Part shown: one piece after another, positions 19,423 through 45,827 of the stretch | Position numbering within the stretch: the stretch's first letter is position 1 | Layout of the letters: every line of letters begins with the position of its first letter | NCBI GenBank assembly: GCA_934702375.1 | Contig: CAKUYE010000013.1 | Coordinates: forward strand, 1,564-65,563 | From: an uncultured Bacillota bacterium | GTDB lineage: Bacteria; Bacillota; Dehalobacteriia; UBA7702 | Direction of reading: 5' to 3' | DNA length: 64,000 nucleotides | Notes under the pieces: model-generated | What the model was told of the DNA's origin: nothing | The model's input: only the letters and a program-made list of their open reading frames with translations | The model's database searches: none | Program-made: the position numbers and the translations under genes

Positions 19423-19435
19423 TGGATAAAAAGTT

Positions 19436-19640: not shown

Positions 19641-19663
19641 ATTTATGCTGGAGGTTTTATGTT

Positions 19664-20416: not shown

Positions 20417-20730
20417 AAAAACAGACGAAAAATAAAACGACTGTGTTGATTCTTTCGGTAGTTGCCATTTTTATCGTCATGATCCCTTTTTTGACATTGA
20501 AAGATGCGGAATTTGGCGGCAGTGACGATGCTGGCAGTGTTATGGTCGAAAATATTAATGGCGAGTATGAGCCGTGGTTTACCCCGGTATTGGAATCGGC
20601 TCTCGGTCATGAGATCCCCGGGGAAATCGAGTCTTTATTCTTTTGCTTGCAAACCGGTATAGGTGTTGGGATCCTGGCATTCTTTATGGGGCGTTTTTAT
20701 GAACGCAAAGTCAGTCAAAAGAAAGAGTGA
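20413..20730 (+). CDS. cbiN: Cobalt transport protein CbiN
   Basis: 105 aa, two TM helices. ATGA start/stop overlap with cbiM. Confidence 0.85.
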
Positions 20731-20766
20731 GCGGGTCTCTCGGACAAAACAGCGAGGATAATTAAG

Positions 20767-21540: not shown

Positions 21541-22382
21541 GTATCATCCGAACGGAGAATTTGCATTTTACTTATGAAGATGGAACTGAAGCCCTTCGCG
21601 GAATTGATATTGCCATTGAAAAAGGAGAAAAAGTTGCTTTGCTCGGAGCAAACGGTTCCGGAAAATCAACTTTTATTTTCAGCTTAAATGGAATCCATCG
21701 ACCTTCTGCCGGTAAACTTTACCTCCATGAAAAACCCTACGATTATTCCAAATTCGGTTTGCGGCACTTACGTTCTGCCGTAGGCGTGATTTTTCAAGAT
21801 CCCGATCATCAGCTTTTTTCTGCCGGAGTTTATCAGGAGATTTCCTTTGGCGCTTTAAATTTGGGTTTACCCGAGGAGGAGGTTCGCCATCGGGTCGATA
21901 AAGCCATTGCCACACTGGAAATCGAACCCTTTCGGCATAAACCTACCCATTTTTTGAGCGGTGGTCAAAAAAAGCAGGTTTCCGTTGCGGATATTCTGGT
22001 AATGGATCCGGAAGTGATTGTTCTTGACGAACCGGAAGCTGCTCTTGACCCTAAGCATGCCGGGATATTAAACCGGATGATTGATGATCTTTCATCCAAA
22101 GGCATCACCATTATTGAATCGACCCATGATGTTGATCATGCCTTTGCCTGGGCGGATCGAGTGATCCTTTTTCACCAAGGAAAGGTCCTGCGCCAAGGGA
22201 GTCCGGAAGAAGTATTTTCTTCGGAAGCAGATCTGAAAAAAACGAACCTTACGAAGCCGGCGGTACTGCACCTTTTTGAAATATTAACAGCGAAGGGCAT
22301 TCTTTCTGCGGGCTTACCGATTCCCAGAGATTTGACACAGCTGGAATCATATATTACTATGAAGGAGGATTTCCCCCGATGA
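21537..22382 (+). CDS. cbiO: ECF transporter ATPase CbiO
   Basis: ABC ATPase. Walker A GANGSGKST, signature LSGGQKK, Walker B ILVMDEP. Start at MSIIRTENL with RBS ggagag. Confidence 0.9.
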   Translation: MSIIRTENLHFTYEDGTEALRGIDIAIEKGEKVALLGANGSGKSTFIFSLNGIHRPSAGKLYLHEKPYDYSKFGLRHLRSAVGVIFQDPDHQLFSAGVYQEISFGALNLGLPEEEVRHRVDKAIATLEIEPFRHKPTHFLSGGQKKQVSVADILVMDPEVIVLDEPEAALDPKHAGILNRMIDDLSSKGITIIESTHDVDHAFAWADRVILFHQGKVLRQGSPEEVFSSEADLKKTNLTKPAVLHLFEILTAKGILSAGLPIPRDLTQLESYITMKEDFPR

Positions 22383-28414: not shown

Positions 28415-29050
28415 GTGTCGGCTCTCATTGCCATTTTTTTTACCTATGGTTTTTTGGATTCCTCTGTAACGGGGATCTATTTTCTTCTTTGTATGTTGAC
28501 TCCCTGCTTGATTTATGGTGTCTATTTTTGCGGTAAGGGGCGTAAGATCTCAATTCCTCATTTTTTGCTGATCCTAGCCTTTCTGGTTTATCTTGAAATT
28601 GTGCTGCGAATCGTAAATATGGGTGTGATCTGGGATATTTCTCATTTTGGGAAGCTTTTGAACTTGGATTCTCTTAATTTCCGGCCCTTTGCATCTTTTG
28701 GCAGCATAAGCTATTTCTTGAATATTTTACTGTTTATCCCCATGGGCTTTGCTTTGCCGTTGATGGCAAAGCGGTATCATAATCTTTGGCTTACGGTGGG
28801 AAGCGGTTTTCTTTTTTCGCTGCTGATTGAACTGAGCCAACTGCTGAACATTCGCTGCAGCGACGTGGATGATTTGATCACCAATACCTTTGGCGTGCTC
28901 CTGGGGTATGCTCTTTGGTTGCTGTGTTGCCGCGGATTTAAGTGGCAGAAATATCCCCGTTCTTCTCTTTCCCCTCGGGAACCCGGTGTTTTTATGCTGC
29001 TGTCCTTTCTCGGTGTCTTTTTTCTTTATAATTTCTGGTTGTTTTGGTGA
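28415..29050 (+). CDS. VanZ-like family membrane protein
   Basis: 211 aa, 5-6 TM segments. ELSQLLNIRCSDVDDLITNTFG matches the VanZ core motif. GTG start. Confidence 0.6.
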   Translation: MSALIAIFFTYGFLDSSVTGIYFLLCMLTPCLIYGVYFCGKGRKISIPHFLLILAFLVYLEIVLRIVNMGVIWDISHFGKLLNLDSLNFRPFASFGSISYFLNILLFIPMGFALPLMAKRYHNLWLTVGSGFLFSLLIELSQLLNIRCSDVDDLITNTFGVLLGYALWLLCCRGFKWQKYPRSSLSPREPGVFMLLSFLGVFFLYNFWLFW

Positions 29051-29096: not shown

Positions 29097-29240
29097 TATT
29101 GTCATAAGTAAATATCGCTGTATCTTCTGCTTCTGCTTTTGATTGTGCAGGGATATCCTTGTGTGTGCGCTATGAAGGATGAGAAAACGATCTTTTTTTT
29201 CAGGTGCGCATTTTATTTTGTCTACAAAGGAGGACGATCA

Positions 29241-32008: not shown

Positions 32009-34471
32009 ATGAAATCGAAAAAACTACAGCGATTTACCGTGGTACTGGCAGCTGTCGTGTGCCTGCTCTGCATCAGTGCCCAAGGTGTTTTTGCTTACGA
32101 TTGGAGCAGCTTCCGCGGTAATGAAGAAAACAATGGTGTTGTGAATTACAAGACGCCCCGTACTGCCGAAGAAGCGGTTCTTTCCTGGGCATTCAGCGCC
32201 GGTGCCGGTTGGGATAATGCCCCCAGCTGCCCGATCATTGTAAACGATACTGTGGTATTTGCTGCAAACAAGATCTTATACAAATTAGACCGTGTTTCCG
32301 GTGAAGTACTTGCCACCGGTACTTTGCGGTATAAATCTGACTTTAACATTATCCCGCCGACCTATGCTGCACCGGATGAATATACCGGTGAACACGGCAT
32401 GATCTTTGTGGGGCTTACTTCCGGTATGGTGCAGGCCTTTGATGCGGAAACTCTGGAATCACTCTGGATTTACAGGGATCCTTTGAGCGGCCAGGTTAAC
32501 TGCCCTTTGACCTACCGTGATGGCAACCTTTATACCGGTTTCTGGTATTCTGAAGAAAAGGAAGCCAACTTTGCCTGCATTCCTGTGGCAAACACTTCGG
32601 AAAATAAATCCGGAGACTTTCAGAAGAGTACCTGGGTACAACCGAATAAAGGCGGTTATTACTGGGCCGGCTGCTATGCTACCGATAATTATGTTGTTGT
32701 CGGCGGTGATGACGGTGAAAAATCCGAGGATCTTGCCGGTACCGATTCCAATGGCGATGCGCCCCTTCGCAGCTTTAATTCCAAGACCGGTGCTTTGATT
32801 GACTCCGTAAAGGGCATCACCGGAGATATCCGCTCTACAGTTTGCTATGATAACGGCTATATCTACTTTACTTCCCGTGCAAAGACTTTCTACCGCGTTG
32901 CCATTGCGGAAGATGGAACCTTCGGTAAGGTTGACGCCTTAAAAATGGACGGTAATTGTACCTCTACTCCCGTTGTGTACAATGGCAGAGCTTATATCGG
33001 TGTTATGGGAACCCGCGGTCAGTTTGACTCTTATTCCGGTCACCATGTTGCCGTGATTGATCTGGATGCCTGGAAAATTGCCTATAAATGCGAAACCAAG
33101 GGATATCCCCAGACCAGCGGTCTTTTAACCACGGCCTATGAAGAAACCGATGGCTATGTATACGTATACTTCTTTGATAATGACAAACCCGGTATGCTCC
33201 GTGTTTTGAAAGATAAACCGGGACAGACCAAAGCAATCACCAACGGTGAAACCGTAAATACCCTGCCGGTGCTTTTCTCGCCTACCGGAGACCAGCAGCA
33301 ATATGCAATTTGCAGTCCTATCTGCGATGAATACGGCACCTTCTATTTTAAAAATGATTCCGGCTATATCATGGCTTTGACCCCCAATGTGACGGATTTG
33401 AAATTCTCCACGCCGCCTACGAAGCAAACTTATCTCGAAGGGGATGCTTTTGATGCTACCGGTGCAACGGCAACCCTTACTTATTGCAATGGCTTGACCA
33501 GAGATGTTTCCAGCTACCTGGCCGGTACTACCGAATCTTTGAGTACCGATGATATCGTTGTGAATGTGACCTTCCCCTATGTGATGTATCAGGATAAGCT
33601 TTTGACTTCGGATGAAATCACTGCCATTGATAACGATAAAACCCTTACGGATTCGAATAAAGTCATCAAAAAGGATGAAAACCATGTTGGCGTAAGTGTT
33701 GAGCTTCCTTATTACGAAGCTTCTGTTACCGTAAATCCTTCTGCCGCGGCTACCGATAAAATGATCGGTGAAACAGAAGGTGTTCTTACCAGAGCTCGTG
33801 TTGAAGCCATTCGAGCCAAGTATGATTCTTTGAGTGCAGAGGAAAAAGATAAAGTAAAGAATCTGGCAATTCTGGTGGAAGCCGAACAGAAGCTGAAGAA
33901 CTTCTACGGTGATGTGCAATCCAGGGATTGGTATTGCAGTGCTGCTGAGTTTGTAACGCTGAACGGATTGATGAATGGTGTGGACAATGGTAAATTTGAT
34001 GGTAACGGCATAACGACCCGCGCACAGCTGGTTACGATTCTTTATCGTTATGCCGGCAGCCCCGATGTTTCCGGCTCAACTCCTTTTACCGATGTAAAAG
34101 CCGGTCAGTGGTATACCAATGCTGTCAACTGGGCTTATGAAAAGGACGTGGTAAAAGGGGTCTCTACAACACAGTTTGGTACCAACGAACCGGTTACCCG
34201 TGAGCAGTTGGTCACGATTCTTTACCGTTACTGCAAAAGCCAGGGTATGGATGTATCGGGTTCTCAATCCTTAACTGGTTTCTCTGATTTCAATCGCGTA
34301 AACACGTACGCAGAAGTGCCTATGAAATGGGGCGTTTATGCAAAGCTGATCAGTGGTATGCCTGAGGGCGGAAATATGTATCTTCAGCCCCAAGGGAGCG
34401 CGACCAGAGCGCAGATTGCCACGATCATGATGCGCTTTATTGATCCTACCGCTGAAAAAGAAGGCAAATAA
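32009..34471 (+). CDS. Cell-surface PQQ-like beta-propeller protein with three SLH domains (paralog 2)
   Basis: About 80% identical to the upstream paralog across the propeller and SLH regions. Has its own signal peptide. RBS aaaggagg. Confidence 0.8.
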   Translation: MKSKKLQRFTVVLAAVVCLLCISAQGVFAYDWSSFRGNEENNGVVNYKTPRTAEEAVLSWAFSAGAGWDNAPSCPIIVNDTVVFAANKILYKLDRVSGEVLATGTLRYKSDFNIIPPTYAAPDEYTGEHGMIFVGLTSGMVQAFDAETLESLWIYRDPLSGQVNCPLTYRDGNLYTGFWYSEEKEANFACIPVANTSENKSGDFQKSTWVQPNKGGYYWAGCYATDNYVVVGGDDGEKSEDLAGTDSNGDAPLRSFNSKTGALIDSVKGITGDIRSTVCYDNGYIYFTSRAKTFYRVAIAEDGTFGKVDALKMDGNCTSTPVVYNGRAYIGVMGTRGQFDSYSGHHVAVIDLDAWKIAYKCETKGYPQTSGLLTTAYEETDGYVYVYFFDNDKPGMLRVLKDKPGQTKAITNGETVNTLPVLFSPTGDQQQYAICSPICDEYGTFYFKNDSGYIMALTPNVTDLKFSTPPTKQTYLEGDAFDATGATATLTYCNGLTRDVSSYLAGTTESLSTDDIVVNVTFPYVMYQDKLLTSDEITAIDNDKTLTDSNKVIKKDENHVGVSVELPYYEASVTVNPSAAATDKMIGETEGVLTRARVEAIRAKYDSLSAEEKDKVKNLAILVEAEQKLKNFYGDVQSRDWYCSAAEFVTLNGLMNGVDNGKFDGNGITTRAQLVTILYRYAGSPDVSGSTPFTDVKAGQWYTNAVNWAYEKDVVKGVSTTQFGTNEPVTREQLVTILYRYCKSQGMDVSGSQSLTGFSDFNRVNTYAEVPMKWGVYAKLISGMPEGGNMYLQPQGSATRAQIATIMMRFIDPTAEKEGK

Positions 34472-34487: not shown

Positions 34488-34525
34488 TTATACCGCAGAG
34501 AGCATTTTCGCCCTCTGCGGTATTT
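34488..34525 (+). terminator. Rho-independent terminator after SLH paralog 2
   Basis: ataccgcagagagcattttcgccctctgcggtatttt. Confidence 0.7.
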
Positions 34526-34571: not shown

Positions 34572-34600
34572 TTGCCTTTTTTTTGAAATGATGCTATATT
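34572..34600 (+). promoter_or_regulatory. Sigma-A promoter (-35 TTGCCT, 17 nt, -10 TATATT) for the riboswitch-led operon
   Basis: ttgcct tttttttgaaatgatgc tatatt. Confidence 0.5.
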
Positions 34601-34623
34601 ATAAGAATAATCAAAGGAATTTT

Positions 34624-34845
34624 CCAAAGCTATGGAATAGAGGTGTGAATCCTCTGCGGTATGGCCACCGTGATGACGAGCTGCTTTTCTTCAATGCCAT
34701 TGATTTGAGTTGAGAAGGCGAAAAGCAGTATGGACTCTAAGTCGGGATACTTGCTTTGGCGGATTTGTGAGAGATGCAGCTGCCATATACAGTTGACATT
34801 CATGTTTCCGCAGAAGCAAAAAACGCTTTTGCGGCTTTTTGTTTC
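34624..34845 (+). promoter_or_regulatory. Cobalamin riboswitch (aptamer ~34624-34748 plus terminator ~34803-34845) heading the DUF4430/MoxR/lipoprotein operon
   Basis: P1 ccaaagc/gctttgg. AGGAA, GGTGtGAATCC, CGGTatgGCCACcGTgA, GCCAtTG, GAAGGCG and B12 box AAGTCGGGATACTTGC in canonical order. Then hairpin ccgcagaagcaaaaaacgcttttgcgg followed by ctttttgttt. Confidence 0.7.
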
Positions 34846-35071
34846 GATGTGAAACCATGAAATATGTGTGTGGCGGGAAGCGAAAGCTTTTGTGGTTCTT
34901 TGCAATGGCGCACACATTGTGTTCTGCCCGGCTTCGCACGGTGGGCAGACATCCGAAACCATAAAGGTGACTATTGGGTGGGTTCGTGCTTTTCGTACAA
35001 GGCCTGCTGCTTTTTGCTGTAAAGAATTAAATTTACCCCATGCTGTAGGATCGGGAGCTGAGGTGTTAAAA

Positions 35072-37207
35072 ATGAAAAAACCGGATTTTAAGAATATGTG
35101 GAAGGCAACGAAAAAGAAGTCTCTTCACCTGCGGAAGTCTTCGCTGTGGATGGGGGCGTTTCTCGTTGTCTTTCTTATTGTTTTAAGCTGCGGTGTACTC
35201 TTTGCCGGAGAATCGGAGCCGGAAAACCCCATTGGCGATAAAAGTGACAGTTTTGATACTGCATCGGTTATTATGAATTGCGAAAGCGATGAGGATGATA
35301 ATGTGTATGTTCCGGTGCCGGTGGCAACAGAGCCGGATCAATCCACGGAATCGGAACAATCCAGTTCCGGTGTAAACGGTCAGGAAGAACAGCAGCAGGA
35401 TCCCAAAGAAGAGGACTCTCAGCAGGAAGAACAGCAAACTCCGCCGGAGCAGGCTCCTCAGGAAGAAAAGATCACCAAGCCTGCGGCCTCGGCCCGCTCC
35501 GATAAAAACAACAATGCGGCTCCCAACGGAGGCGGCGGTACCAGCGGCGGCACAGACCCCAGCGGTGAAAAAGCCGATAAGGTCTATTTTACTACCGATA
35601 TTAAAGACGGTGAGGAAGTCACGGAAAAAGCCTATGCTTTTAAAGTTACCCATAAATATCCAGAATTAAAGACGACTAAATTTGTTGTTAAAGTGAACGA
35701 TATGGAAGTTCCTCAAGATAGTCTAACATCCTGTAAAGTGGAGCTTACAGAAGGTAAAAATACCATTCGGATTTCTGCAACCTACTTGGATTCTACCGGC
35801 AAGGTTGTCGCTACTCCGTATAAAGATTACACGGTTATTCTTAATACGAAGGACCTTGTAATCAATATTAATGGTCTTGAAGATGGGGCGGAGGTGGCTC
35901 AGTCTGGACTCTCATTTGAAGCTTCTGCATCGTATAAAAATACCAAGGCATCTCTTTCTGTTCAGTTAAATGGCAAAACAATCAAGTCTAAGGGAAATGG
36001 AAAATATGATGTTTGGCTCAATTCGGGAAAGAATACTTTTACCTTTGAGGCTTCCGGTGGCGGTTTAAAGAAAAAGGAAGAGCGTACTATCATCTATACT
36101 CCCTCTGGTGTGCCTACTGTAGAATTTTTATTCCCTGAGAAAATAGAGGACACCATTGAATTTGAGGTTCGTGTAACCGGTGTTCCCGCTTCAAAAGTGG
36201 AAGGTATTACTCTCACCAGTACTACCGCAAAGATTAATCTTATTGATAAAGATAAATCTACCGCTACATATCGTTACAAAGCTACTTTGAAAAATGGAGT
36301 AAATAAATTTTCCGCCCGCGTCAAATATGACGGGAATCTGCTGGTTCCCGTTATTAAAGAGGTTGAGTTAAAACGACCGTCGGCCGGTCCTGGGAATGAT
36401 CGTCCGAGCGGAGATCGTTCTCCGGTAATTACGGAAATTAATATTACCAATGGCATGGAAACAAACAGCAGTACCTTAAATATGCTTGTCCATGCGGTGG
36501 ACTATAAAAAGGCGAACTTGAATGCAAATAACATGACGGTGCTTCTCAATGGCTTGCAGGTTATGAATCCTTGGTTGAACAATGGCGCTATGACCTATGC
36601 GATGAGGTTTGCTTCCGGTGAAAACCTTGTGGAGATTTATCTGCGAGATAGCGAGGGGTATGAGGCGTATTACAAATATCAGGTTACGTACACCCCGGTT
36701 ACCGGCCCTGTTGGCAATGCTCTTGTTAGTGTGGAGGGCACTACTGTTGGTTTGGGATATATTATTCCGCCGACCTCGGTTCCCATTTACGATGATGAGC
36801 CTGCTTCCTATGTTGTCGATCGTCTGCTGAAGGAAAACGGTATTACCTATGATTATGGCGGGAGCTTTGACAATGGGTTCTATCTGCAGCGTATCTATAA
36901 GCAAGGCTTGATGGCAAACTTCTCTATTCCGGAAAGGCTTCGCCAATATATTGATGATTACGGTGTTTTCCTGGAAGAAAATAAATATGAACTGGATAGC
37001 TTGGGAGAAAAGGACTTTATCCCCTCGGGTTCCGGCTGGATGGTTGCTGTGGATGGACATTACACCGGCTACGGCTTCTCGGATATGCGGTTGACAGATG
37101 GTTCTGTTGTCAAGGTACGCTTTACTCTGTATATGGGTAAAGATATCGGTGATGACAGTGCAGCCTCGGAAGGCCAAACCTTCCCTGAAATTTTTGTGGA
37201 ACCCTGA
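35072..37207 (+). CDS. Large membrane-anchored surface protein: N-terminal TM anchor, acidic E/Q/D-rich linker, four ~90-aa Ig-like beta-sandwich repeats, C-terminal DUF4430 (transcobalamin beta-domain-like) domain
   Basis: MKKPDFKNMWKATKKK + hydrophobic helix. Low-complexity region about aa 60-170. Repeats with ...NG...G.N.. periodicity. C-terminus ...GSGWMVAVDGHYTGYGFSDMRLTDGSVVKVRFTLYMGKDIG matches the DUF4430 core. Start moved to ATG 35072 (RBS ggagctgagg). Confidence 0.7.
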   Translation: MKKPDFKNMWKATKKKSLHLRKSSLWMGAFLVVFLIVLSCGVLFAGESEPENPIGDKSDSFDTASVIMNCESDEDDNVYVPVPVATEPDQSTESEQSSSGVNGQEEQQQDPKEEDSQQEEQQTPPEQAPQEEKITKPAASARSDKNNNAAPNGGGGTSGGTDPSGEKADKVYFTTDIKDGEEVTEKAYAFKVTHKYPELKTTKFVVKVNDMEVPQDSLTSCKVELTEGKNTIRISATYLDSTGKVVATPYKDYTVILNTKDLVININGLEDGAEVAQSGLSFEASASYKNTKASLSVQLNGKTIKSKGNGKYDVWLNSGKNTFTFEASGGGLKKKEERTIIYTPSGVPTVEFLFPEKIEDTIEFEVRVTGVPASKVEGITLTSTTAKINLIDKDKSTATYRYKATLKNGVNKFSARVKYDGNLLVPVIKEVELKRPSAGPGNDRPSGDRSPVITEINITNGMETNSSTLNMLVHAVDYKKANLNANNMTVLLNGLQVMNPWLNNGAMTYAMRFASGENLVEIYLRDSEGYEAYYKYQVTYTPVTGPVGNALVSVEGTTVGLGYIIPPTSVPIYDDEPASYVVDRLLKENGITYDYGGSFDNGFYLQRIYKQGLMANFSIPERLRQYIDDYGVFLEENKYELDSLGEKDFIPSGSGWMVAVDGHYTGYGFSDMRLTDGSVVKVRFTLYMGKDIGDDSAASEGQTFPEIFVEP

Positions 37208-37233
37208 TAGGCTGCGAGAAAGGAACGAATGAG

Positions 37234-38187
37234 ATGAATCAGCAGGTAAATGATATATTAAATGAAATAAAAAAGGTTATTGTCGGGAAGGACGAAGTCA
37301 TTTCCAAGGTTTTTATGGCCATGCTCTCCGGCGGTCACATCCTTTTGGATGACGTCCCCGGGGTAGGGAAAACCACCTTGGCATTGTCTTTCAGCAAGGC
37401 TTTGGGGCTGGATTACAAGCGTGTTCAGTTGACTTCCGACAGCATGCCTTCGGATATCGTTGGTTTTTCCGTTTATGATAAGGAAACCGGCCGAATCGAA
37501 TATAAACCCGGCGCGGTTATGACCAACCTTTTCCTTGCCGACGAAATTAACCGTACCTCCAGCCGCACGCAGTCTGCATTGTTGGAGGTTATGGAAGAAG
37601 GCCATGTGACTGTGGACGGTGTGACCAGAGAGGTTCCCCAGCCCTTTGTTGTTATCGCAACCCAGAACCCGGTGGGGTCTGCCGGGACGCAGATGCTGCC
37701 CGATTCCCAGTTAGACCGTTTTATGATCCGTACTCAGATGGGATATCCGGATTTCCAAAGTCAGGTCAATATTTTGAAAGACCGCCATACCTCAAATCCT
37801 CTTAACAATGTGCAGCGGCTTACCGATGGCGAAGGGCTTCTTGCCTTGCGCCGTCAGGTTACCGATATTTACATCGCCGATGCGATCTATGAATATGTGA
37901 CCTCTCTTGCAGAGGCTACTCGTACCCATGAGCTGGTATTGCAGGGGCTTAGTCCCCGTGGGGCTCTGGCGCTTTGCCGCATGAGCAAGGCTTATGCTTT
38001 TGTGAATGGTCGGGACTATGTGATACCCGAGGATATCGCTGCGGTGTTCCCGGATGTTGTCGGTCACCGTTTGATGCTTCAGCCCAAAGCGCGCCTTACC
38101 GGTACTACTGCTGCAGACGTTACCGCAGACCTGATTCAGTCGGTGCCGATGCCGGTTACCGGAAAGGATGCAGTCCATGAAGGCTAA
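37234..38187 (+). CDS. MoxR-family AAA+ ATPase
   Basis: 317 aa. Walker A DDVPGVGKTT. Walker B/sensor (LFLADEINR). Single AAA+ module of MoxR size. Confidence 0.85.
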   Translation: MNQQVNDILNEIKKVIVGKDEVISKVFMAMLSGGHILLDDVPGVGKTTLALSFSKALGLDYKRVQLTSDSMPSDIVGFSVYDKETGRIEYKPGAVMTNLFLADEINRTSSRTQSALLEVMEEGHVTVDGVTREVPQPFVVIATQNPVGSAGTQMLPDSQLDRFMIRTQMGYPDFQSQVNILKDRHTSNPLNNVQRLTDGEGLLALRRQVTDIYIADAIYEYVTSLAEATRTHELVLQGLSPRGALALCRMSKAYAFVNGRDYVIPEDIAAVFPDVVGHRLMLQPKARLTGTTAADVTADLIQSVPMPVTGKDAVHEG

Positions 38188-39343
38188 TATCATTTGTACG
38201 GCAGTGGGGGCCGTCCTTCTGCTGGTATTGGCTGTTTTTTCTCAAAGCCTTATGCCGCTGCTGCTGATGGTGGCATTTCTCCTCCTTGTGGCAGGCTCCC
38301 TTGGTGTTCAGCGCCTTGGTGCGGCATCTCTTTTTGCCTCTTTTGAAATGGAGGAATTGGCGGAGAAGAATCAGTCCTTGAAAGGGCAGCTCATTATCTA
38401 TAACCGTGGCCGGATCCCATTTCCTGTAGTACGGGCTATCGTGGAAACGAACAATCTTTTGACGGGAGAAAAGACGGTCACACCGGTGCCGGTGGGGATT
38501 GGTCCTCGGGGCGCTGCGACATCGACTCTGACTTTTTCTTCAGCCTACTGCGGCCGACTTAAAGTGTCGGTATCGAAATTGAAAATTTATGATTTTTTCG
38601 GTTTGGTTTCTTTGCCGGTAAAGGTGGAGGGGAAAAAGAAAGCGTTGATCCTGCCGGAATTATACTGCCCCGATGTTGTTGTGGCCAAAAGCGGCGTTAC
38701 CGAGCCGGAGTGCGATTCCTTTTCGCCGTATAAAGCCGGGAATGATCCTTCGGAAACTTTTGCAATTCGCGATTACGAGCCGGGAGATTCCCTGCGCAGT
38801 ATTCACTGGAAGCTCACCGGAAAATTCGATCGTCTTGTGGTGCGTGAATCCAGTTTGCCGATGAATGAATCGGTATTGATTCTTTTTGAGCGAATGAAAA
38901 AAGATGACGAAGCTTTTGCTGCTCCGGAGGTTCGCAATGCTATGGGGCAGATCCTGCTCTCTCTCTCGAACCAGCTTGCCGAGATGAATCTTGCCCATAC
39001 CATTGGCTGGCTTCGGGCAGAAAATGGCACGTTTATCGGTCATCGGGTAGATTCTGAGGAATCCTTTCAATTGGTTATGGCGGAGGTTTTATCCGTTTCT
39101 GAAATTTCAGGAGAAGATGATACCGTTGAAGGCTTCTTGAAAACCAATGATCACGACAGCTATTCCAATATTGTATATGTAACTGCCCATTCCAGCGAAC
39201 ACCTTTCTTTGTTGCCGCTGATGTCGCGAAAAACGATGATCCTTTGTGGGAAGGAAGAAACAGACATTGACCTTGTTGATGGTACTGTGTACACAGTAAC
39301 GCCGGATAATTATGAAACGGTGCTGTATGAAATTTTGATTTAA
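38168..39343 (+). CDS. DUF58-domain protein (vWA-like partner of MoxR ATPases)
   Basis: N-terminal TM helices. Signature RDYEPGDSLRSIHWKLTGKFDRLVVRE. Overlaps the moxR stop. Confidence 0.75.
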   Translation: MQSMKANIICTAVGAVLLLVLAVFSQSLMPLLLMVAFLLLVAGSLGVQRLGAASLFASFEMEELAEKNQSLKGQLIIYNRGRIPFPVVRAIVETNNLLTGEKTVTPVPVGIGPRGAATSTLTFSSAYCGRLKVSVSKLKIYDFFGLVSLPVKVEGKKKALILPELYCPDVVVAKSGVTEPECDSFSPYKAGNDPSETFAIRDYEPGDSLRSIHWKLTGKFDRLVVRESSLPMNESVLILFERMKKDDEAFAAPEVRNAMGQILLSLSNQLAEMNLAHTIGWLRAENGTFIGHRVDSEESFQLVMAEVLSVSEISGEDDTVEGFLKTNDHDSYSNIVYVTAHSSEHLSLLPLMSRKTMILCGKEETDIDLVDGTVYTVTPDNYETVLYEILI

Positions 39344-41733
39344 TGAAGAAAAGAATGAAGTCTGAAAACTCAGCCGGCCTTACCGTAAGCTGTGAGGCTG
39401 CAATACAACAGAATAATTCGTTCTTGCGGTTGGATTTGATCGCTCTCTTTTGTCTCGGTGTTTTGCTTCTGATCTCTTTTGGCGGGTTACTGCTTTCGCT
39501 TTTTGAGATTTCGGCTTCCGGCATCGTGCTGATTCTGTGGGGAGCGGTATGCGTGGGAGGCTGCATTTCTTTTTATGCCTTCCCCGGGATACGCCGTTGG
39601 CTTTTGATCGGTGCTGTTGCTCTGATTGGAGCTTTGATTGTTTTTACCTGGGGTATGTTTAGCGATGGCTTTGGTCTTGTGGTCAATGCCGTAAAAGACT
39701 TCTTTGGGATTCGCCTCGGTCGAATTTTTCTTCCCACGGTGGTTTCCGGTCTTTATGGGAAAAAGATTGCGGCTACGGTCTTTTTATTGCCGCTGACCCT
39801 TGTTCTTGCCATTGTCAGCAGCTATCTTGTTTGTTGCCGCAGCAATATTTTATTGTGGCTTATTCTTCTTCTTACTGCTGCCGGATTGGTCTTTGGCTTG
39901 TCCTCTCCATCCTGGTATTGGTACGCCCTTGCATTTGCCGCCTTGCTTTTGGTGGTGATTTCTCGATTAAACGTGGTAGTGCCCGGCAGCGGCAAAGGTC
40001 TGCCGATGTTGCTGCTCATTTTACCTCTCCTTGCGGTGGTCGGCATCGTATCGGCATTACCCGCTTTGGGATTCTTTGGCGGTAGCTATGAACGCCCTGA
40101 GGTTTTTACGGCGCTTGAAGAATCCTGTGCAGGTCTTTGGGATCACCTGCGTTGGCCTGATGATACGACCAGCAATTTGCCGGAAGGACAGCGTGAGAAT
40201 ATGGAAACGCCGAATCTCACTGAGGAACCGGCCTTTGAAATCTCAATGTCATCTCCGGAATCGTTGTATCTTCGCGGCTTTGTCGGCAGCGTTTATACGA
40301 AGGACGGTTGGGAATCTCCGGATCCGCGAACTGTCTACGAGTATGCCGATACCTTTTATTGGCTTCATCAGGACGGATTTTACGGTACTTCTCAGCTCTC
40401 TGCTGCTGCAGCTGCTGCGGGTATGGACAATGGGGAAAATACCGTGTCCTTTCATTATTTGGGAGCCAAAGATAAGTATGTTTACACGCCCTATGAGTAT
40501 GAGAGTTCCGATGTAGGGAAGGCTTCCCTGCGGATTGGAGATATTGCGCCGTCGCCGAAGGACTATGGCCGGGCAGACACGATTACCTACACCATGAGCA
40601 ACAATTTGGTGCGGTCTGCGGCGGATATTGCCGATGCTCTTGCCAAGGTTGCGGAAAGCGGAGATCTTTCCGCAACCTCGTATCTTCAAGACGAAGCGGC
40701 TTATCGGGAATATGTGTATGCGACAAATTTAGATCTTTCCGATGAAATGAAGCTCCTGATGACCAGTGTATTGGGAGAAGTGAATACAAAGTCCGGTCAT
40801 CCGGATTATGATACGGTTATGCAATCGATTCTGGATGCTTTGCTAACGGAATATGTATACGATGATAGCTTCGAGCCTTCGAAGGATGCGGATATCGTTT
40901 CCGACTTTATGGAAAGCAGCGCCACAGGATACTCTGTGCAGTATGCTTCTACTGCAGCCTTGATGTTCCGTTATTATGGTATCCCTGCCCGCTATGTGGA
41001 AGGCTATATCGTTACTCCTTTTGATACTTTGGCGGTTGGTGCCGATGAGCCTATTACGATTACCGGGAAAAATGCTCATGCCTGGGTGGAATATTATCGT
41101 GACGGTGTCGGTTGGATTCCATTTGAAGTGACACCGCCGTATCTGTATATCATGCCGCAGCCGGATCATATCAAATCTTATGCCTCTGATATCTATGACC
41201 CGGAAACCAATCAACAGGGCATGACCAATATGGATGAAGATAATTATGAAGAGGAGCAGGAGCCGGACACTCCCAAGGATGATAAAAAGGCAATTCCTTC
41301 CTGGGCGATTGCGTTGATCGTCATCGGCAGCATCTTGCTTTTGATACTCCTGGCATTTCTCATTTTGGCAATACGGCGTATTCGCGTGATTGCCTCCCGT
41401 AAAAAAACAGTTTCGGAAATGGAGGATGGCGATGCCATTGATCGTTTGTTCCGGGATTCTTTGGAACTGTTGTATCGCGGTGGTTTGACACCGAGGAATG
41501 GCTCTCTGGATAACTATCGTGAGCCGTTGATGGCTTTTGGCGATAAAGAACTGGTAACTTTATACACCATGATGGTTGCGCTTCACCGAGAATCCCGCTT
41601 TAGTGATCATGGAATCTCACCGGAACGGCGAAAAGTCTTTGTCATGTTCCACCGTGAGGCAAAGAGATTTGTGAAGGCCCATGCCTCTTTCTGGAAGCGG
41701 TTTTGGGATCAGTATATCCGTAATATTTATTAA
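39343..41733 (+). CDS. Transglutaminase-like superfamily polytopic membrane protein (TgpA-like architecture) with non-canonical catalytic residues
   Basis: N-terminal approximately 7 TM. Core GYSVQYASTAALMFRYYGIPARYVEGY ... NAHAWVEYYRDGVGWIPFEVTP. A late TM helix plus cytoplasmic tail follow. Ser occupies the usual Cys position and Glu the usual Asp position. Confidence 0.65.
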   Translation: MKKRMKSENSAGLTVSCEAAIQQNNSFLRLDLIALFCLGVLLLISFGGLLLSLFEISASGIVLILWGAVCVGGCISFYAFPGIRRWLLIGAVALIGALIVFTWGMFSDGFGLVVNAVKDFFGIRLGRIFLPTVVSGLYGKKIAATVFLLPLTLVLAIVSSYLVCCRSNILLWLILLLTAAGLVFGLSSPSWYWYALAFAALLLVVISRLNVVVPGSGKGLPMLLLILPLLAVVGIVSALPALGFFGGSYERPEVFTALEESCAGLWDHLRWPDDTTSNLPEGQRENMETPNLTEEPAFEISMSSPESLYLRGFVGSVYTKDGWESPDPRTVYEYADTFYWLHQDGFYGTSQLSAAAAAAGMDNGENTVSFHYLGAKDKYVYTPYEYESSDVGKASLRIGDIAPSPKDYGRADTITYTMSNNLVRSAADIADALAKVAESGDLSATSYLQDEAAYREYVYATNLDLSDEMKLLMTSVLGEVNTKSGHPDYDTVMQSILDALLTEYVYDDSFEPSKDADIVSDFMESSATGYSVQYASTAALMFRYYGIPARYVEGYIVTPFDTLAVGADEPITITGKNAHAWVEYYRDGVGWIPFEVTPPYLYIMPQPDHIKSYASDIYDPETNQQGMTNMDEDNYEEEQEPDTPKDDKKAIPSWAIALIVIGSILLLILLAFLILAIRRIRVIASRKKTVSEMEDGDAIDRLFRDSLELLYRGGLTPRNGSLDNYREPLMAFGDKELVTLYTMMVALHRESRFSDHGISPERRKVFVMFHREAKRFVKAHASFWKRFWDQYIRNIY

Positions 41734-41772
41734 ATTGATTGATTTTAGCTAAGGTGTTTTAAGGAGGAAATC

Positions 41773-42774
41773 ATGAAAAGAAAATTATTTCTGCTGTCTA
41801 TCGCTTGCCTTTGCCTTGTTTTTGCACTTTGCGGCTGCGGCAGCAAAAGCGACAGTTCCGGGGATGGTGGGGCAGATACCACAACCTCTGCCGAGTTAAC
41901 GCCGGAATCCGCTCAAGCCGATGTTGCTGCGTACTTTAGCAGCCATAGTTCGGAATTGCTCACTGCCGGAGATGGTAGTGCAGATTGGGTTGTTATTGCC
42001 TATGCTCGCAGCGATTGCAAAGCTCCGGATAAGTTCTTTGACAAATTCTATGCTTTACTGGAACAGCAAGTTACGGAAGCCCAAGGGGTTCTCGATGATA
42101 CGAAATATACCGTATACTCCCGCTCGGTTCTTGCTTTGACAGCGATGGGGAAGGATCCTCATAATGTTGGCGGATATGATCTTTTAGAGCCGTTAGCCGA
42201 TGTTGATACCGTAGCTTCTCAGGGGTTGAACGGCTCGATTTGGGCCTTGCTGGCATTGAATTCCGGCCATTACACTCTGGAAAGCCGTCCCGATGCTGCA
42301 GAAAGTTATCTCAGCCTGATCCTTAACGGTCAGTTGGATAACGGTGGCTTTGCTTTGGGGGAAGGTGCCGATGCGGATATCGATATTACCGCCATGGCGT
42401 TACAGGCCCTTGCTCCCTATCAGGATCGCGAGGAGGTATCGGCTGCCATTGACCGCGGTTTGACGTACCTTAGTGAATCTCAGAGCGATGACGGAAGCTA
42501 CCTCTATTATGGTTCTGCAAATGCAGAAAGTATTTGTCAGGTCATTACGGCTGTTTCCTCTCTTGGCATTGGCATTGATGATGATCGTTTTGTGAAAAAC
42601 GGCAATACCCTGTTTGATGCTCTGATGGAATATCGTTTGGATGATGGTTCATATTTCCATACTGCGGAAATGAAAGAAACCAATCTTATGGCTTCGGAAC
42701 AGGCTTTTTATGCTCTGACTGCATTGATTCGAAATGAAAAAGGTGAATCTGCTCTTTATGCAATGGCAGACTGA
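41773..42774 (+). CDS. Lipoprotein with prenyltransferase/terpenoid-cyclase-like alpha/alpha-toroid repeats (transcobalamin alpha-domain-like)
   Basis: Lipobox LVFALCGC. Three Q/R-x-D-(N/D)-G-(G/S)-(F/Y) repeats (NGQLDNGGFALGEG, SQSDDGSYLYYG, YRLDDGSYFHTAE) plus GSIWALLAL and ITAMALQAL helices. Confidence 0.65.
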   Translation: MKRKLFLLSIACLCLVFALCGCGSKSDSSGDGGADTTTSAELTPESAQADVAAYFSSHSSELLTAGDGSADWVVIAYARSDCKAPDKFFDKFYALLEQQVTEAQGVLDDTKYTVYSRSVLALTAMGKDPHNVGGYDLLEPLADVDTVASQGLNGSIWALLALNSGHYTLESRPDAAESYLSLILNGQLDNGGFALGEGADADIDITAMALQALAPYQDREEVSAAIDRGLTYLSESQSDDGSYLYYGSANAESICQVITAVSSLGIGIDDDRFVKNGNTLFDALMEYRLDDGSYFHTAEMKETNLMASEQAFYALTALIRNEKGESALYAMAD

Positions 42775-42798
42775 TCACAGTAGAGGGGGGAATTTTCA

Positions 42799-43398
42799 AT
42801 GAGATTTAAAAAGGCTTTTGCTCTATTCCTTTTGATTGCGGTTTTGCCGATATTTGCGGCTTGCGGAACAATCACGACAAAAGATGCCGGAGAGTATAGC
42901 GATGATGTCGATGCCTATCAGACAGAACCGGTTCCCGAAGGGAAACCGAGTCCGGTAAATACGGAAGATCAGGAAATCGATAAAACGAAAGCCGGTACTT
43001 GTACTTTATCGGTAGAATGCAAGACGATTCTTGACAATATGACGAAACTGAAAAAGGAAAAGAAGGATATTGTTCCGGAAGACGGCATTATCTTCCCCAA
43101 GCAGGAAGTAACTTTTTATGAAGGGGAATCTGTTTTCGATGTTTTGCAACGCGAAATGCAGGATAATAAAATTCATTTGGAATTTGAATGGACGCCTCTT
43201 TACGGCTCCAGCTATGTGGAAGGTATCGCGAACCTTTATGAAATGGATTGCGGTGAGCTTTCCGGGTGGACATTTAGTGTAAATGGGTGGTTCCCCAATT
43301 ATGGTGCCAGTCGTTATATCGTTTCCGAAGGAGATGATATTCAGTGGCTGTATACCTGTGACCTTGGCAAGGATGTTGGCTCTACAATGGAGGAATAA
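42799..43398 (+). CDS. DUF4430-family lipoprotein (transcobalamin/intrinsic-factor beta-domain-like)
   Basis: Lipobox PIFAACG. ...GELSGWTFSVNGWFPNYGASRYIVSEGDDIQWLYTCDLGKDVG matches the DUF4430 core. Confidence 0.7.
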   Translation: MRFKKAFALFLLIAVLPIFAACGTITTKDAGEYSDDVDAYQTEPVPEGKPSPVNTEDQEIDKTKAGTCTLSVECKTILDNMTKLKKEKKDIVPEDGIIFPKQEVTFYEGESVFDVLQREMQDNKIHLEFEWTPLYGSSYVEGIANLYEMDCGELSGWTFSVNGWFPNYGASRYIVSEGDDIQWLYTCDLGKDVGSTMEE

Positions 43399-43466
43399 TT
43401 GGAGTTGCCTCTTGGGTGATTTTGTGATATGATGAATCATCGCATGGAAAGGACGGACAGCTTATT

Positions 43467-44405
43467 ATGGAACTGATACATGCTTTGTTTCACTCATCTC
43501 AACGTGGTCCCTTGACGTTGCAGGGGATTAAGGAATTGGCAAATATTCATTATTGGGCAGTTTCTATTATCCCTGTGTTGCTGGGATCTGCTCTGGCATA
43601 TACTGTTGGAAACAAATTTGACCTTCTGGTATTTGTACTTTTATTGCCGGCAGCGATTTCCATGCATTGCGTTGTAAATGCCTATAATCATTTATTTGAT
43701 TATTTGCGTGGGACCGATAGAGGGGAAGAAAAAAACAGCCCCCGTTATCCGATCCTTTATTATGGGATCAATCCTTTGTATGTGTTAATCCTTGGTGTTG
43801 TATACCTGTTTCTTGCTTTTGTGCTGTCCTTTTATGTCGTATTGCAGGCCGGCTGGCCTTTGTTGATGATTGGCGCTGTGGGGGCATTTATTGCGGTGTT
43901 TTACTCCGGAGGCCCATTCCCCCTGGCACACTATCCTTTGGGGGAATTTGCCAGCGGCACGGCCATGGGAGGGCTGATTCCTTTTGCGGTATATTATGGC
44001 ATGACCGGTTCTCTGGATTGGATCATTTTGGTATATACATTGCCAATGATCTTGACCATTGGTATCCTTTGTTTTATCAATAATATTTGCGATATTGAAA
44101 AGGATTCAATTAATCGCCGAACTTTGCCAATATTGATTGGCCGCCCTCTTTCGTCAACATTATTTCGTGTAGGGTACGGGCTAACATGGATTTGCGCGCT
44201 TCTCATTTCTGTGCTTTGTTTTACCAAAGGCTGTTGGATATTAATCTTAAGCTTGGTTCTTGCCTGGAAAAAACTTCGGGAGCTTTTCCGTATGAATTAT
44301 ACTCCGTCAACCCGAAATATAGTGATTCCACTGTATGCTTCCACGATTCCTATCTTGAATGTAGGATATACGATTGCGATTTTATTACAGGGATTGCTCC
44401 ATTAG
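43467..44405 (+). CDS. UbiA-superfamily (MenA-like) integral membrane prenyltransferase
   Basis: 312 aa, 8-9 TM. First Asp-rich motif NAYNHLFDYLRGTD (NxxxDxxxxxD). Second acidic region NICDIEKD. Ends with a TAG stop. Confidence 0.6.
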   Translation: MELIHALFHSSQRGPLTLQGIKELANIHYWAVSIIPVLLGSALAYTVGNKFDLLVFVLLLPAAISMHCVVNAYNHLFDYLRGTDRGEEKNSPRYPILYYGINPLYVLILGVVYLFLAFVLSFYVVLQAGWPLLMIGAVGAFIAVFYSGGPFPLAHYPLGEFASGTAMGGLIPFAVYYGMTGSLDWIILVYTLPMILTIGILCFINNICDIEKDSINRRTLPILIGRPLSSTLFRVGYGLTWICALLISVLCFTKGCWILILSLVLAWKKLRELFRMNYTPSTRNIVIPLYASTIPILNVGYTIAILLQGLLH

Positions 44406-44412
44406 AAATTGC

Positions 44413-44460
44413 ATACCGGAAATGTAGTTGCTGAAAACACATTTCCGGTATTTTTGTGTC
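44413..44460 (+). terminator. Rho-independent terminator closing the riboswitch-led seven-gene operon
   Basis: ataccggaaatgt-agttgctgaaaac-acatttccggtat followed by ttttgtg. Confidence 0.75.
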
Positions 44461-44672: not shown

Positions 44673-45827
44673 ATGGGTAAAGGAAAGAGAAAAAAGCATA
44701 AAAATAAGAAGCGCCGCGCTTTAAAAATCGTATTAGTGGTATTGGTTATCGTATTGGTTTTGTGCGCCGGCGCACTTGGTGCTGCCTATTATATGCTGGG
44801 AAATCTGAATACGGTAGACTTTACAGAAAGCGATGCGGATCTTGGTATCGACGAGAGCAATGGCAGCGATGAAGTTGTGAATATCGCTCTGTATGGTGTT
44901 GACACAAGAGATTTTTCAAAAGATACCGGTTTGAGCGATGCGATCATCGTTATGTCTGTAGATCAGAAGAACAATGTGATCAAAATGACTTCTATCCTGC
45001 GCGACAGCAAGGTCCCGATCGAAGGTCATGGCTCTCAGAAAATCAACCACGCATACTCCTACGGCGGTCCTGTTTTGGCAATGAAAACGTTAAATCAGAA
45101 CTTTGGCTTGGATATCAAAGAGTATGTCACGGTAAACTTTAGTCAGCTAGCAGACATCGTGGATGCCGTTGGCGGGGTTACTCTCAATTTGACGGATGAA
45201 GAAGTAAGAGAAACAAATATCAATATGGCAGATAAATTTGGGGATGAGCCTAAAGTGCAATCCTCCGGGGAAGTCCTGCTTACCGGGGCTCAAGCGGTTT
45301 CCTATTCGCGTATACGGAAAATCGACAGTGATAATATGCGTGCTTCCAGACAGCAAAATGTACTGAATGCTGTTTTTGAAAAGATTAAAACAATGTCAAA
45401 ATCAGAGTATCCGGGATTTATTCGCAAATTCCTGGGTATTGTGGAAACGTCTTTGAGTTATAGCGATTTAATGGCGCTTGCCCCTATTGCGATGCATGGA
45501 TTTACCATAGAAAATTATACCATCCCCGATGCGGAGTTTGAAACGGATCTTTGGGGTGGGATCGATGAAACCGGTGCGTGGGTTTGGACGTATGATATCG
45601 GTGCTGCTGCAAATCGTTTGCATAACATCATTTATGGTGAGGGCTATACTGCACCAACTACTGATACGACTACGCCGGAAACGAGCTCAGAAAATACTGT
45701 GGTGGATAACTCTGCTCAAACGCAGCCTGCAGAGACCCCTCCTGTGGAGGAAAATTCCTCCAATAATACGACTACAGATGCTGCTCCGAAACAGAGCGGC
45801 GTAACGGTAGACCAAATGATGCAATAA
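44673..45827 (+). CDS. LytR-CpsA-Psr (LCP) family cell-wall glycopolymer transferase
   Basis: Basic N-terminus plus a single TM. LCP core ...LSDAIIVMSVDQKNNVIKMTSILRDS... C-terminal Thr/Pro-rich tail. Confidence 0.8.
   Translation: MGKGKRKKHKNKKRRALKIVLVVLVIVLVLCAGALGAAYYMLGNLNTVDFTESDADLGIDESNGSDEVVNIALYGVDTRDFSKDTGLSDAIIVMSVDQKNNVIKMTSILRDSKVPIEGHGSQKINHAYSYGGPVLAMKTLNQNFGLDIKEYVTVNFSQLADIVDAVGGVTLNLTDEEVRETNINMADKFGDEPKVQSSGEVLLTGAQAVSYSRIRKIDSDNMRASRQQNVLNAVFEKIKTMSKSEYPGFIRKFLGIVETSLSYSDLMALAPIAMHGFTIENYTIPDAEFETDLWGGIDETGAWVWTYDIGAAANRLHNIIYGEGYTAPTTDTTTPETSSENTVVDNSAQTQPAETPPVEENSSNNTTTDAAPKQSGVTVDQMMQ

Follow-up and report, generated by a model that had tools for sequence, protein, structure and literature searches.

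The window analysed here is a 64,000-nucleotide (nt) stretch of contig CAKUYE010000013.1 (assembly GCA_934702375.1) from an uncultured Bacillota bacterium. It contains a cobalamin (vitamin B12) riboswitch followed on the plus strand by seven open reading frames (ORFs), designated g1 to g7, and it is this transcription unit, with a predicted role in corrinoid capture at the cell surface, that is considered below. The genes encode a membrane-anchored surface protein (g1), a MoxR-type AAA+ ATPase (g2), a DUF58 protein (g3), a membrane protein with a transglutaminase (TGase) fold (g4), two lipoproteins (g5 and g6), and a UbiA-family prenyltransferase (g7). All seven ORFs were confirmed, with intergenic gaps of 26, −20, −1, 39, 24, and 68 nt. 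The unit is closed by an intrinsic terminator at 44413–44451 (+) (−20.8 kcal/mol, z −4.47), in which the hairpin is followed by a U-run (letters UUUUUGUGU), in agreement with a first-pass annotation that had described a tightly packed plus-strand operon ending at a terminator. Domain searches reproduced every domain call of that annotation, although DUF58 in g3, Prenyltrans in g5, and DUF4430 in g1 scored below their Pfam cut-offs and were then supported in other ways.

The riboswitch aptamer was placed at 34610–34772 (+) by Rfam scanning (RF00174, model positions 1–189, 53.5 bits against a gathering score of 31.5, E = 1.7 × 10−10), confirming the original assignment; the span first given, 34624–34845, corresponds to the aptamer together with its expression platform. 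A promoter-like site at 34583–34611 (+) (TTGAAA, 17-nt spacer, AATAAT) agrees with the consensus at 10 of 12 positions, and is a consensus match only. Downstream of the aptamer, an intrinsic terminator at 34808–34844 (+) comprises a 10-bp stem (34808–34834, −15.5 kcal/mol) and a U-run, the letters after the hairpin being CUUUUUGUUU. This is typical of a terminator-type expression platform, and from this anatomy we infer that the hairpin serves as a transcriptional OFF switch upon corrinoid binding. The gene upstream of the riboswitch stops at a strong terminator of its own (34490–34523, −23.7 kcal/mol, z −5.6), so that the riboswitch unit is insulated from it.

Comparison with the three closest relatives (loci L007, L085, and L088) showed the aptamer and terminator at the orthologous position, with compensatory changes in one aptamer stem. 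The terminator itself was conserved in L007 and L088 and weakly so in L085, and past it, up to the start of g1, nothing was conserved in this comparison. Two more cobalamin riboswitches lie in the window, at 19082–19277 (−), where the riboswitch heads the cbi biosynthesis operon, and at 19425–19557 (+), where it heads a cbiM-cbiQ-cbiO-cbiK operon. Both operons lie within 2485–24294. The anaerobic cbi operon, on the minus strand, looks complete; cbiM-cbiQ-cbiO-cbiK lie on the plus strand together with an aminotransferase gene, and each of the two sets has a riboswitch of its own.

Predicted surface binders and related loci

The most likely start of the first gene, g1, is ATG 35072, which is preceded by a GAGGTG ribosome-binding site, and not GTG 34868 (779 amino acids, aa). 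Its product (35072–37207 (+)) is then 711 aa long, and the term 'giant' applied to it earlier is not warranted. The protein consists of an N-terminal transmembrane anchor (residues 30–48), an acidic low-complexity linker, beta-sandwich repeats, and a C-terminal DUF4430 domain. The last of these scored 17.9–18.2 bits, under the Pfam cut-off of 23.8, and was confirmed by alignment of the C-terminus to the g6 family profile (hhalign, 97.6% probability, E = 3 × 10−12). Orthologues of g1 passed the Pfam cut-offs for Cadherin-like, Glucodextran_B, and DUF4430, the DUF4430 cut-off being passed by those of L016, L055, and L050. In about 50 loci, g1 adjoins the MoxR gene on its upstream side.

The product of g6 (42799–43398 (+)) is a lipoprotein (lipobox FAAC) with a transcobalamin-beta-like DUF4430/SLBB domain (57.7 bits against the Pfam gathering threshold of 23.8, E = 1.7 × 10−15). 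For its AlphaFold (AF2) model (predicted local distance difference test score, pLDDT, 87.6), the top 19 PDB matches were all intrinsic factor, transcobalamin, haptocorrin, or 3u7z, an R. gnavus DUF4430 structure, with E values of 1.7 × 10−6 to 3.6 × 10−5. Against the isolated transcobalamin beta-domain (5no0, 5np4), template modelling (TM) scores were 0.75–0.77.

The neighbouring lipoprotein, g5 (41773–42774 (+)), proved by fold comparison to be a single (alpha/alpha)6 toroid, as expected of a counterpart to the transcobalamin alpha-domain. Its Prenyltrans match of 24.4 bits fell below the Pfam cut-off of 26.5. In structure comparison, g5 resembled class II terpene cyclase domains best; transcobalamin and intrinsic factor also gave significant matches, and g5 was no closer to B12 carriers than to other toroids, terpene cyclases included. 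An assignment of g5 as a class II terpene cyclase or protein prenyltransferase was not supported: SQHop_cyclase reached 16–18 bits (cut-off 26) and the NCBIfam squalene cyclase model 26 bits (cut-off 323), the catalytic DxDD motif (D.DD) is missing, and the protein carries a lipoprotein signal peptide. When g5 and g6 were searched by sequence against the chains of the PDB, no transcobalamin came up, and fold comparison alone revealed the likeness. The proposal that the two lipoproteins resemble the two domains of transcobalamin is thus clear for g6, and holds for g5 at the level of general fold only.

In mammalian B12 carriers, a toroid and a beta-grasp domain clamp one cobalamin. The g5 and g6 proteins are built like these two parts of transcobalamin, intrinsic factor, and haptocorrin, g5 as an (alpha/alpha)6 toroid and g6 as a beta-grasp domain, but each is here a separate lipoprotein, and no sequence-level match to transcobalamin was found. 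The g5 and g6 genes are adjacent in most loci, and in Paenibacillus alba (L087) a single SLH protein of 2485 aa combines three g5-type and two DUF4430 domains. Because the two domain types are fused in this protein, they would be expected to act together. From fold and profile evidence, g1, g5, and g6 are predicted to be the corrinoid binders, with g5 and g6 thought likely to sandwich the ligand in the manner of a split transcobalamin.

To place the unit in context, related loci were collected: five through g5 homologues (L001–L005), 79 genome-derived ones through the TGase alignment (L006–L084), and six further loci. Homologues of g5 and g6 were abundant in Clostridia, and the order g1-MoxR-DUF58-TGase-g5-g6 recurred in about 60 Clostridia loci. 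The fuller order is [beta-propeller]-g1-MoxR-DUF58-TGase-[~1500-aa beta-propeller]-g5-g6-ecfT-ecfA/A′-ecfS, where the ecf genes encode an energy-coupling factor (ECF) transporter. Carriers include Lachnospiraceae, Oscillospiraceae, Peptococcaceae (a metagenome-assembled genome), and others, among them Faecalicatena, Fusibacillus, Robinsoniella, and Eubacterium ramulus. The conserved unit comprises six genes rather than the seven first proposed, as the UbiA gene g7 is not a member of it.

In about 40 related loci, the ECF transporter genes (ecfT, ecfA/A′, and a CbrT-like S component) directly follow the binder genes. The S component of L001 was closest to 6fnp_A, the 182-residue membrane chain of the ECF-CbrT structure 6FNP (E = 6 × 10−7). 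The operon had been regarded as an alternative to ECF-CbrT; since most relatives have the ECF genes right after the same genes, the system would assist ECF transport, not replace it. Further downstream, cobT, cobU, and cobS often follow the cluster in the same direction, and in L002 and L004 the ECF genes are succeeded by an AP_endonuc_2 gene and then cobT, cobU, and cobS. The AP_endonuc_2 genes, which encode xylose-isomerase-like TIM barrels, lie at 15008–15757 in L004, 16093–16842 in L002, and 16021–16770 in L001, co-oriented in all three between the ECF genes and cobT/U/S. By the gene-context criterion used for CbiR cobamide-remodelling enzymes (PMC7733943), they are CbiR-like candidates, and these three clusters may couple capture, uptake, and lower-ligand remodelling.

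A cobalamin riboswitch at the head of the cluster was also a recurrent feature. Rfam scans identified one in L007, L085, L055 (94 bits), L016 (91 bits), and L028 (85 bits), as well as in Paenibacillus alba L087 (112 bits) and Sedimentibacter L086, and that of L088 was found by nhmmer (E = 2 × 10−25). Among the loci that could be evaluated, nine had a riboswitch, the window included, and three did not. Most loci end inside upstream genes, before the operon start, and the fraction of clusters bearing a riboswitch is therefore not derivable from these counts. A MAFFT alignment of six riboswitches was too poor for a covariance model; nhmmer was used and reached close relatives only, so that the riboswitch evidence is carried by Rfam scans of selected loci. 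The expected occurrence of MoxR-DUF58-TGase genes beside DUF4430 genes and downstream of B12 riboswitches in other Firmicutes was borne out.

The most informative arrangement was that of L016, in which one riboswitch (91 bits) is followed by ten co-directional genes separated by gaps of at most 46 nt, in the order beta-propeller, g1, g5, MoxR, DUF58, TGase, g6, ecfT, ecfAA′, ecfS. In L016, as in L021 and L024, the MoxR-DUF58-TGase triad lies between binder genes and ECF genes. Within the available stretch, L087 and L086 show no triad; both have giant SLH proteins and a g6-type lipoprotein as well as a riboswitch and an ECF module. In L087 (2470–9927), the 2485-aa SLH protein stands behind the riboswitch and precedes the g6-type lipoprotein and ECF T/AA′/S.

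The MoxR-DUF58-transglutaminase module

The three genes between g1 and the lipoprotein genes make up the MoxR-DUF58-TGase triad. The first, g2 (37234–38187 (+)), is a cytoplasmic MoxR-type AAA+ ATPase without a transmembrane segment (AAA_3, 180.7 bits, E = 1.4 × 10−53; AAA_lid_2, 81 bits, E = 5 × 10−23), and shows 57–84% identity across the related clusters. The AAA_3 core, AAA_lid_2, and an adjoining DUF58 gene place it in the MoxR/MRP group. That DUF58 gene, g3 (38168–39343 (+)), shares 20 nt with g2 at one end and 1 nt with g4 at the other, and its product has an N-terminal membrane anchor. DUF58 (PF01882) scored 21.9 bits in g3, just under the cut-off of 23.4, and 24.6–30.5 bits in the orthologues of L007, L010, L023, and L077. 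The signature REYxPGDxxxxIHWKxSxK is conserved in the g3 family, and REYxxGDxxxxIHWK occurs in all 70 aligned homologues.

The third protein, g4 (39343–41733 (+)), is a TgpA-like polytopic membrane protein (Transglut_core, 67.9 bits against a cut-off of 23, E = 1.1 × 10−18). Its N-terminus crosses the membrane several times and is followed by an extracytoplasmic transglutaminase-fold domain, a single transmembrane segment at 656–674, and a conserved cytoplasmic tail. We take the catalytic triad of P. aeruginosa TgpA to be C404/H448/D464, with which the C-to-H spacing of 44 and H-to-D spacing of 16 in the Cys-bearing relative L077 agree. Triad columns were set by aligning L077 to TgpA (PDB 6G49). 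In g4 these columns read Ser-His-Glu, in place of Cys-His-Asp.

Extension of the comparison to 82 aligned TGase homologues produced a clean division; the counts are of loci, not independent events, and include some near-duplicates. The catalytic Cys was kept at 15 loci, none of which has g1, g5, or g6 nearby, and was absent from the other 67, of which 61 have g1, g5, or g6 as neighbours. Expressed by context, Cys was lost in 61/61 B12-linked homologues and kept in 15/15 unlinked ones. Oscillospiraceae-type homologues also lack the catalytic His. With the Cys column lost, the B12-linked TGase-like proteins are most likely non-catalytic, and g4 would be a pseudo-enzyme. The association of the triad with B12 clusters is conserved and clade-specific.

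The pairing of MoxR with a vWA-like protein had been likened to the CobS/CobT chelatase. This likeness does not extend beyond the level of the AAA+ clade. A chelatase assignment of g2 was tried and rejected, all scores being far under the cut-offs (BchD-ChlD, 39.7 vs 499.6 bits; putative cobaltochelatase, 30.8 vs 779; BchI, 26.7 vs 467). Among the aligned DUF58 homologues, no DxSxS metal-binding motif was present.

The gene order is shared with the MoxR(MRP)-DUF58-transglutaminase cassettes of the bifidobacterial PFNA cluster (PMC8430577), the mycobacterial moxR1 operon (PMC12067865), and P. aeruginosa TgpA (6G49). Unlike those cassettes, the present one combines a TGase without catalytic Cys, a surface protein with a B12-carrier domain, a riboswitch, and corrinoid-uptake neighbours. 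Four of the five PFNA positions (g1–g4) were matched in order, but no Ser/Thr kinase gene was found among the neighbours, and the locus does not qualify as a PFNA cluster. In the bifidobacterial and mycobacterial cassettes, exported proteins are considered to be the clients of MoxR as a chaperone (PMC8430577, PMC12067865), and for this reason an assembly or remodelling role is proposed for the triad here. By this analogy, it would most likely be an ATP-driven chaperone and scaffold for the assembly or remodelling of the binder complex at the surface, and of g1 in particular.

A predicted corrinoid-capture system and its alternatives

Taken together, these data suggest that the locus is a corrinoid-repressed operon for surface corrinoid capture in Gram-positive Clostridia, with g1–g6 as its core and with two upstream genes for SLH-anchored beta-propeller proteins probably belonging to the same system. 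We consider this reading probable, with room for real doubt. When corrinoid is plentiful in the cell, the aptamer would bind it and the hairpin at 34808–34834 would terminate transcription; when corrinoid is scarce, g1–g6 would be transcribed. The lipoproteins g5 and g6 would then clamp corrinoid like a split transcobalamin, while the g1 stalk presents a second beta-like domain, and the captured ligand would be handed to a CbrT-like ECF transporter, which in this genome would be encoded outside the window. The ATPase g2, with g3 and g4, would form an accessory module serving as chaperone or scaffold for the binder complex, and the inactive external TGase-like domain of g4 may provide a docking site for surface proteins.

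A stronger version can also be envisaged, in which the polytopic g4 would pass the effect of ATP hydrolysis in the cytoplasm on to its inactive external transglutaminase-fold domain, and this domain would assemble g1, g5, g6, and the beta-propellers, or make them release their ligand to ECF-CbrT. In this version, the triad would be a transmembrane device powered by ATP and dedicated to the acquisition of corrinoids in Gram-positives; with relay and binder assembly or ligand release included, it is a tentative proposal that we would not at present favour. If true, it would give Gram-positives an equivalent of TonB-energised B12 capture, and would assign a widespread, enigmatic triad its first defined function.

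Parts of this system have been anticipated, and the apparatus cannot be called undescribed, as it was at first. Burroughs, Balaji, Iyer and Aravind in 2007 defined a transcobalamin-like SLBB clade and predicted extracellular B12 scavenging by it in Gram-positives; the domains occurred together with alpha/alpha toroids, Ig domains, and beta-propellers, as fusions or as pairs, in operons with CbiO/CbiQ-like genes, and their carriers usually lacked biosynthesis (PMC1796856). As in those systems, several paralogous surface binders are encoded per operon, beside ECF-type genes in relatives of the window. The 2007 account does not, however, mention MoxR, vWA/DUF58, transglutaminase, or riboswitch control (PMC1796856), and unlike the systems it describes, the genome studied here has binders, no transporter in the cluster, and a full cbi pathway. 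In L. sakei, the lsa1836-1840 operon, which has been studied experimentally, encodes ECF S, AA′, and T with a beta-like (Lsa1839) and an alpha-like (Lsa1840) protein (bioRxiv 10.1101/864751). It shares with our clusters the split alpha-like/beta-like transcobalamin pair and an ECF transporter alongside, in our case in the relatives, but no MoxR triad or g1-type stalk has been described there, and the ligand assigned was heme.

Other known systems differ more widely. The ECF-CbrT transporter of L. delbrueckii (PDB 6FNP) works without extracellular binders (PMC5997447); the related clusters have an ECF module of the same architecture, and this window contains no such transporter. The surface lipoproteins BtuG and BtuH of Bacteroides offer a functional analogy, in that high-affinity capture at the surface precedes a membrane transporter and a beta-propeller component is present in both, but in our case other folds would do the binding, and there is neither an outer membrane nor a TonB-dependent transporter. 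At the sequence level, a search of the SLH propellers against BtuG chains in the PDB found no similarity. Open-access papers, to which the search was limited, gave nothing that connects MoxR, DUF58, or transglutaminase with B12 uptake or with a cobalamin riboswitch, which is not proof of absence. Surface capture of B12 by transcobalamin-like proteins was already predicted in 2007, and is well supported here by context and fold; what is new is the conserved MoxR-DUF58-pseudo-transglutaminase module in these clusters, its riboswitch control, the loss of its catalytic Cys, and the wide spread of the cluster in gut Clostridia.

Several points weigh against corrinoid capture as the function of the operon. 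The genome seems to make corrinoids itself, having a cbi operon and cbiMQO-cbiK under the two other riboswitches, and the window contains no B12-type ECF S or T component apart from cbiM/Q/O. The host is a likely corrinoid producer that also holds capture genes, a combination that would be unusual given the 2007 remark that carriers are usually without biosynthesis. In L039, L058, and L069, Oscillospiraceae-type loci in which the operon start is visible, no riboswitch reached the Rfam gathering score. MoxR is cytoplasmic and the binders are extracellular, and any energy coupling between them is conjecture. All binder and operon functions are predictions, made from sequences and structural models.

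The comparative evidence also raises the question of whether two unrelated systems share one transcript, g1 and the triad being a general surface or adhesion cassette and only g5 and g6 handling B12. The order beta-sandwich surface protein-MoxR-DUF58-TGase is known from bifidobacteria and mycobacteria, with no known link to B12 (PMC8430577, PMC12067865), the triad occurs on its own in at least 15 Clostridia loci (L068–L084), and g5-g6-ECF clusters occur without it in Paenibacillus L087 and Sedimentibacter L086, within the available stretch. Against such a division, g1 itself carries a C-terminal DUF4430 domain, the riboswitch precedes g1 and the triad rather than g5 and g6 alone, the triad stands between binder and ECF genes in L016, L021, and L024, and the B12-linked TGase homologues form a distinct set without catalytic Cys. 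We regard a two-system transcript as unlikely, though it deserves more weight than the remaining alternatives. The ligand, rather than the gene set, is at issue if the binders take up heme or another tetrapyrrole. This was proposed for L. sakei lsa1836-1840, where the ECF transporter with beta-like and alpha-like transcobalamin subunits has been tied to heme uptake (bioRxiv 10.1101/864751), and a reviewer of the 2007 paper had cautioned that ligands within this domain clade could vary (PMC1796856). The L. sakei claim for the two subunits is, however, based on homology modelling and docking, and in our clusters the ligand is indicated by the cobalamin riboswitches that precede the genes in nine loci, representing several families, by an S component closest to CbrT, and by the co-directional cobamide nucleotide-loop genes cobT, cobU, and cobS downstream in relatives. 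A heme ligand would thus seem improbable.

Enzymatic functions for the lipoprotein and prenyltransferase genes fare worse. If g5 and g7 made a prenylated membrane compound, the unit would be an isoprenoid-lipid operon, as the terpene cyclase domains at the top of the g5 structural matches, its NCBI name 'terpene cyclase/mutase family', and the genuine UbiA-family membership of g7 might imply. Yet g5 is an exported lipoprotein with one toroid, no DxDD, and a Pfam score below cut-off, domains of its type are fused to DUF4430 and SLH in L087, and g7 is missing from nearly all related clusters and is found elsewhere with cell-wall polysaccharide genes; we give this explanation very little credence. 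Least plausible of all, to the point of being nearly negligible, is a MoxR-vWA-beta-propeller ternary conflict (defence) system. It would draw on a match of g2 to Pfam bpMoxR (43 bits) and on the beta-propeller genes nearby, but AAA_3 scores far higher (181 bits), the propellers are secreted SLH or dockerin proteins, and the whole context is B12-related. No PADLOC model matched g2–g7 or the SLH propeller at 32009–34471, and g1 gave only a weak match in its N-terminal anchor and linker.

Should corrinoid capture be the function, the locus bears on a general problem. Corrinoids are scarce and contested in the gut, and the best-studied surface corrinoid systems, BtuG and BtuH, are from Bacteroides, while capture by the dominant Gram-positive Clostridia is largely undescribed. 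Occurrence of the cluster in many Lachnospiraceae and Oscillospiraceae, the cultivable Eubacterium ramulus, Faecalicatena, and Robinsoniella included, makes the 2007 scavenger prediction testable. It also ties an enigmatic AAA+ triad (MoxR, DUF58, TgpA-like), whose role in mycobacteria, bifidobacteria, and Pseudomonas has been obscure, to a defined ligand and regulator, and so to a concrete assay; the clean loss of the catalytic Cys in the B12-linked set is a specific and checkable lead.

Flanking genes

Neither the cbi region nor the methyltransferase locus flanks the operon directly, contrary to the first-pass annotation, which had placed it between the two. Upstream are SbcCD, a VanZ gene (28415–29050), and two SLH propeller genes; downstream is a 17-kb LytR-CpsA-Psr/polysaccharide locus, with a LytR_CpsA_Psr gene at 44673–45827. 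The first propeller gene (29139–31769 (+)) encodes an SLH-anchored beta-propeller surface protein (SLH, E = 4.6 × 10−25; PQQ_2 and Beta-prop_ACSF4 in Pfam). The second (32009–34471 (+)), which ends at the terminator at 34490–34523, encodes a paralogue with 76% identity to the first, which indicates that the tandem genes are a recent duplication. Both products are 44–46% identical to the beta-propeller protein encoded within the L004 cluster (paralogue 1, 46% over 535 aa, E = 1 × 10−140), and SLH propeller neighbours are conserved in L007, L085, and L088. In the window, the propeller genes are transcribed apart from g1–g6, outside the control of the riboswitch at 34610–34772. They probably belong to the corrinoid-capture system nonetheless.

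In L007, the closest relative, two more cobalamin riboswitches were found back to back, at 17521–17711 (−) and 17947–18064 (+), and some 900 nt beyond the plus-strand one a gene for an SLH beta-propeller protein begins (18961–21594). This suggests that propeller genes can be regulated by B12 independently. In L001, L002, and L004, the ~1500-aa beta-propeller protein carries a dockerin, and cohesin-domain proteins are encoded upstream in Oscillospiraceae-/Lachnospiraceae-type clusters (L048, 1425–3538; L056, 273–2714; L010, 3884–5257). A cellulosome-style cohesin-dockerin assembly of the B12-capture complex may replace SLH anchoring there.

At the other end of the unit, g7 (43467–44405 (+)) encodes a MenA-like UbiA-family prenyltransferase (UbiA, 92.7 bits against 34.2, E = 3 × 10−26). 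The best score against the MenA equivalog, 146.7 bits, was below the cut-off of 277, and the assignment is to UbiA superfamily membership only. No counterpart was found in the 79 genome-derived loci (L006–L084), L001–L005, L085, L086, or L087; among related clusters, a UbiA gene adjoins g6 in L088 only. In L089 and L090, g7 orthologues (66–67% identical) occur in the order VanZ-UbiA-LytR_CpsA_Psr-polysaccharide genes. A promoter-like site with an extended −10 element precedes g7 (43405–43433), and because the g6-g7 gap contains no terminator, read-through from g6 is likely. We conclude that g7 probably goes with the cell-wall polysaccharide genes that lie downstream of it, and rides along in transcription as a passenger rather than as a conserved member of the system.

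The VanZ, UbiA, and LytR_CpsA_Psr genes are contiguous in L089 and L090, but are split in the window by a 14-kb block made up of the SLH propellers and g1–g6. This suggests that the block was inserted here or lost elsewhere, as judged by the VanZ-UbiA-LytR_CpsA_Psr synteny of these two loci only. The G+C content of the 29–44 kb region (44–48%) is like that of the upstream DNA, with no compositional anomaly that would point to horizontal insertion.

Minor variations were seen in close relatives. In L085, a 501-aa DUF4430 and SLH protein (10645–12150) follows g6 where the window has UbiA. In L088, g1 and MoxR were called as one 1043-aa product (1590–4721), which may reflect a frameshift, faulty assembly, or a true gene fusion, and CntK_N, BCCT, and MTTB genes lie downstream of UbiA. 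In the window, the gene for trimethylamine methyltransferase (MttB) is split into ORFs at 61220–62206 and 62219–62701, and a pyrrolysine insertion element (PYLIS, RF02510, 77.8 bits) at 62204–62303 begins at the in-frame UAG of MttB. The organism appears to use pyrrolysine.

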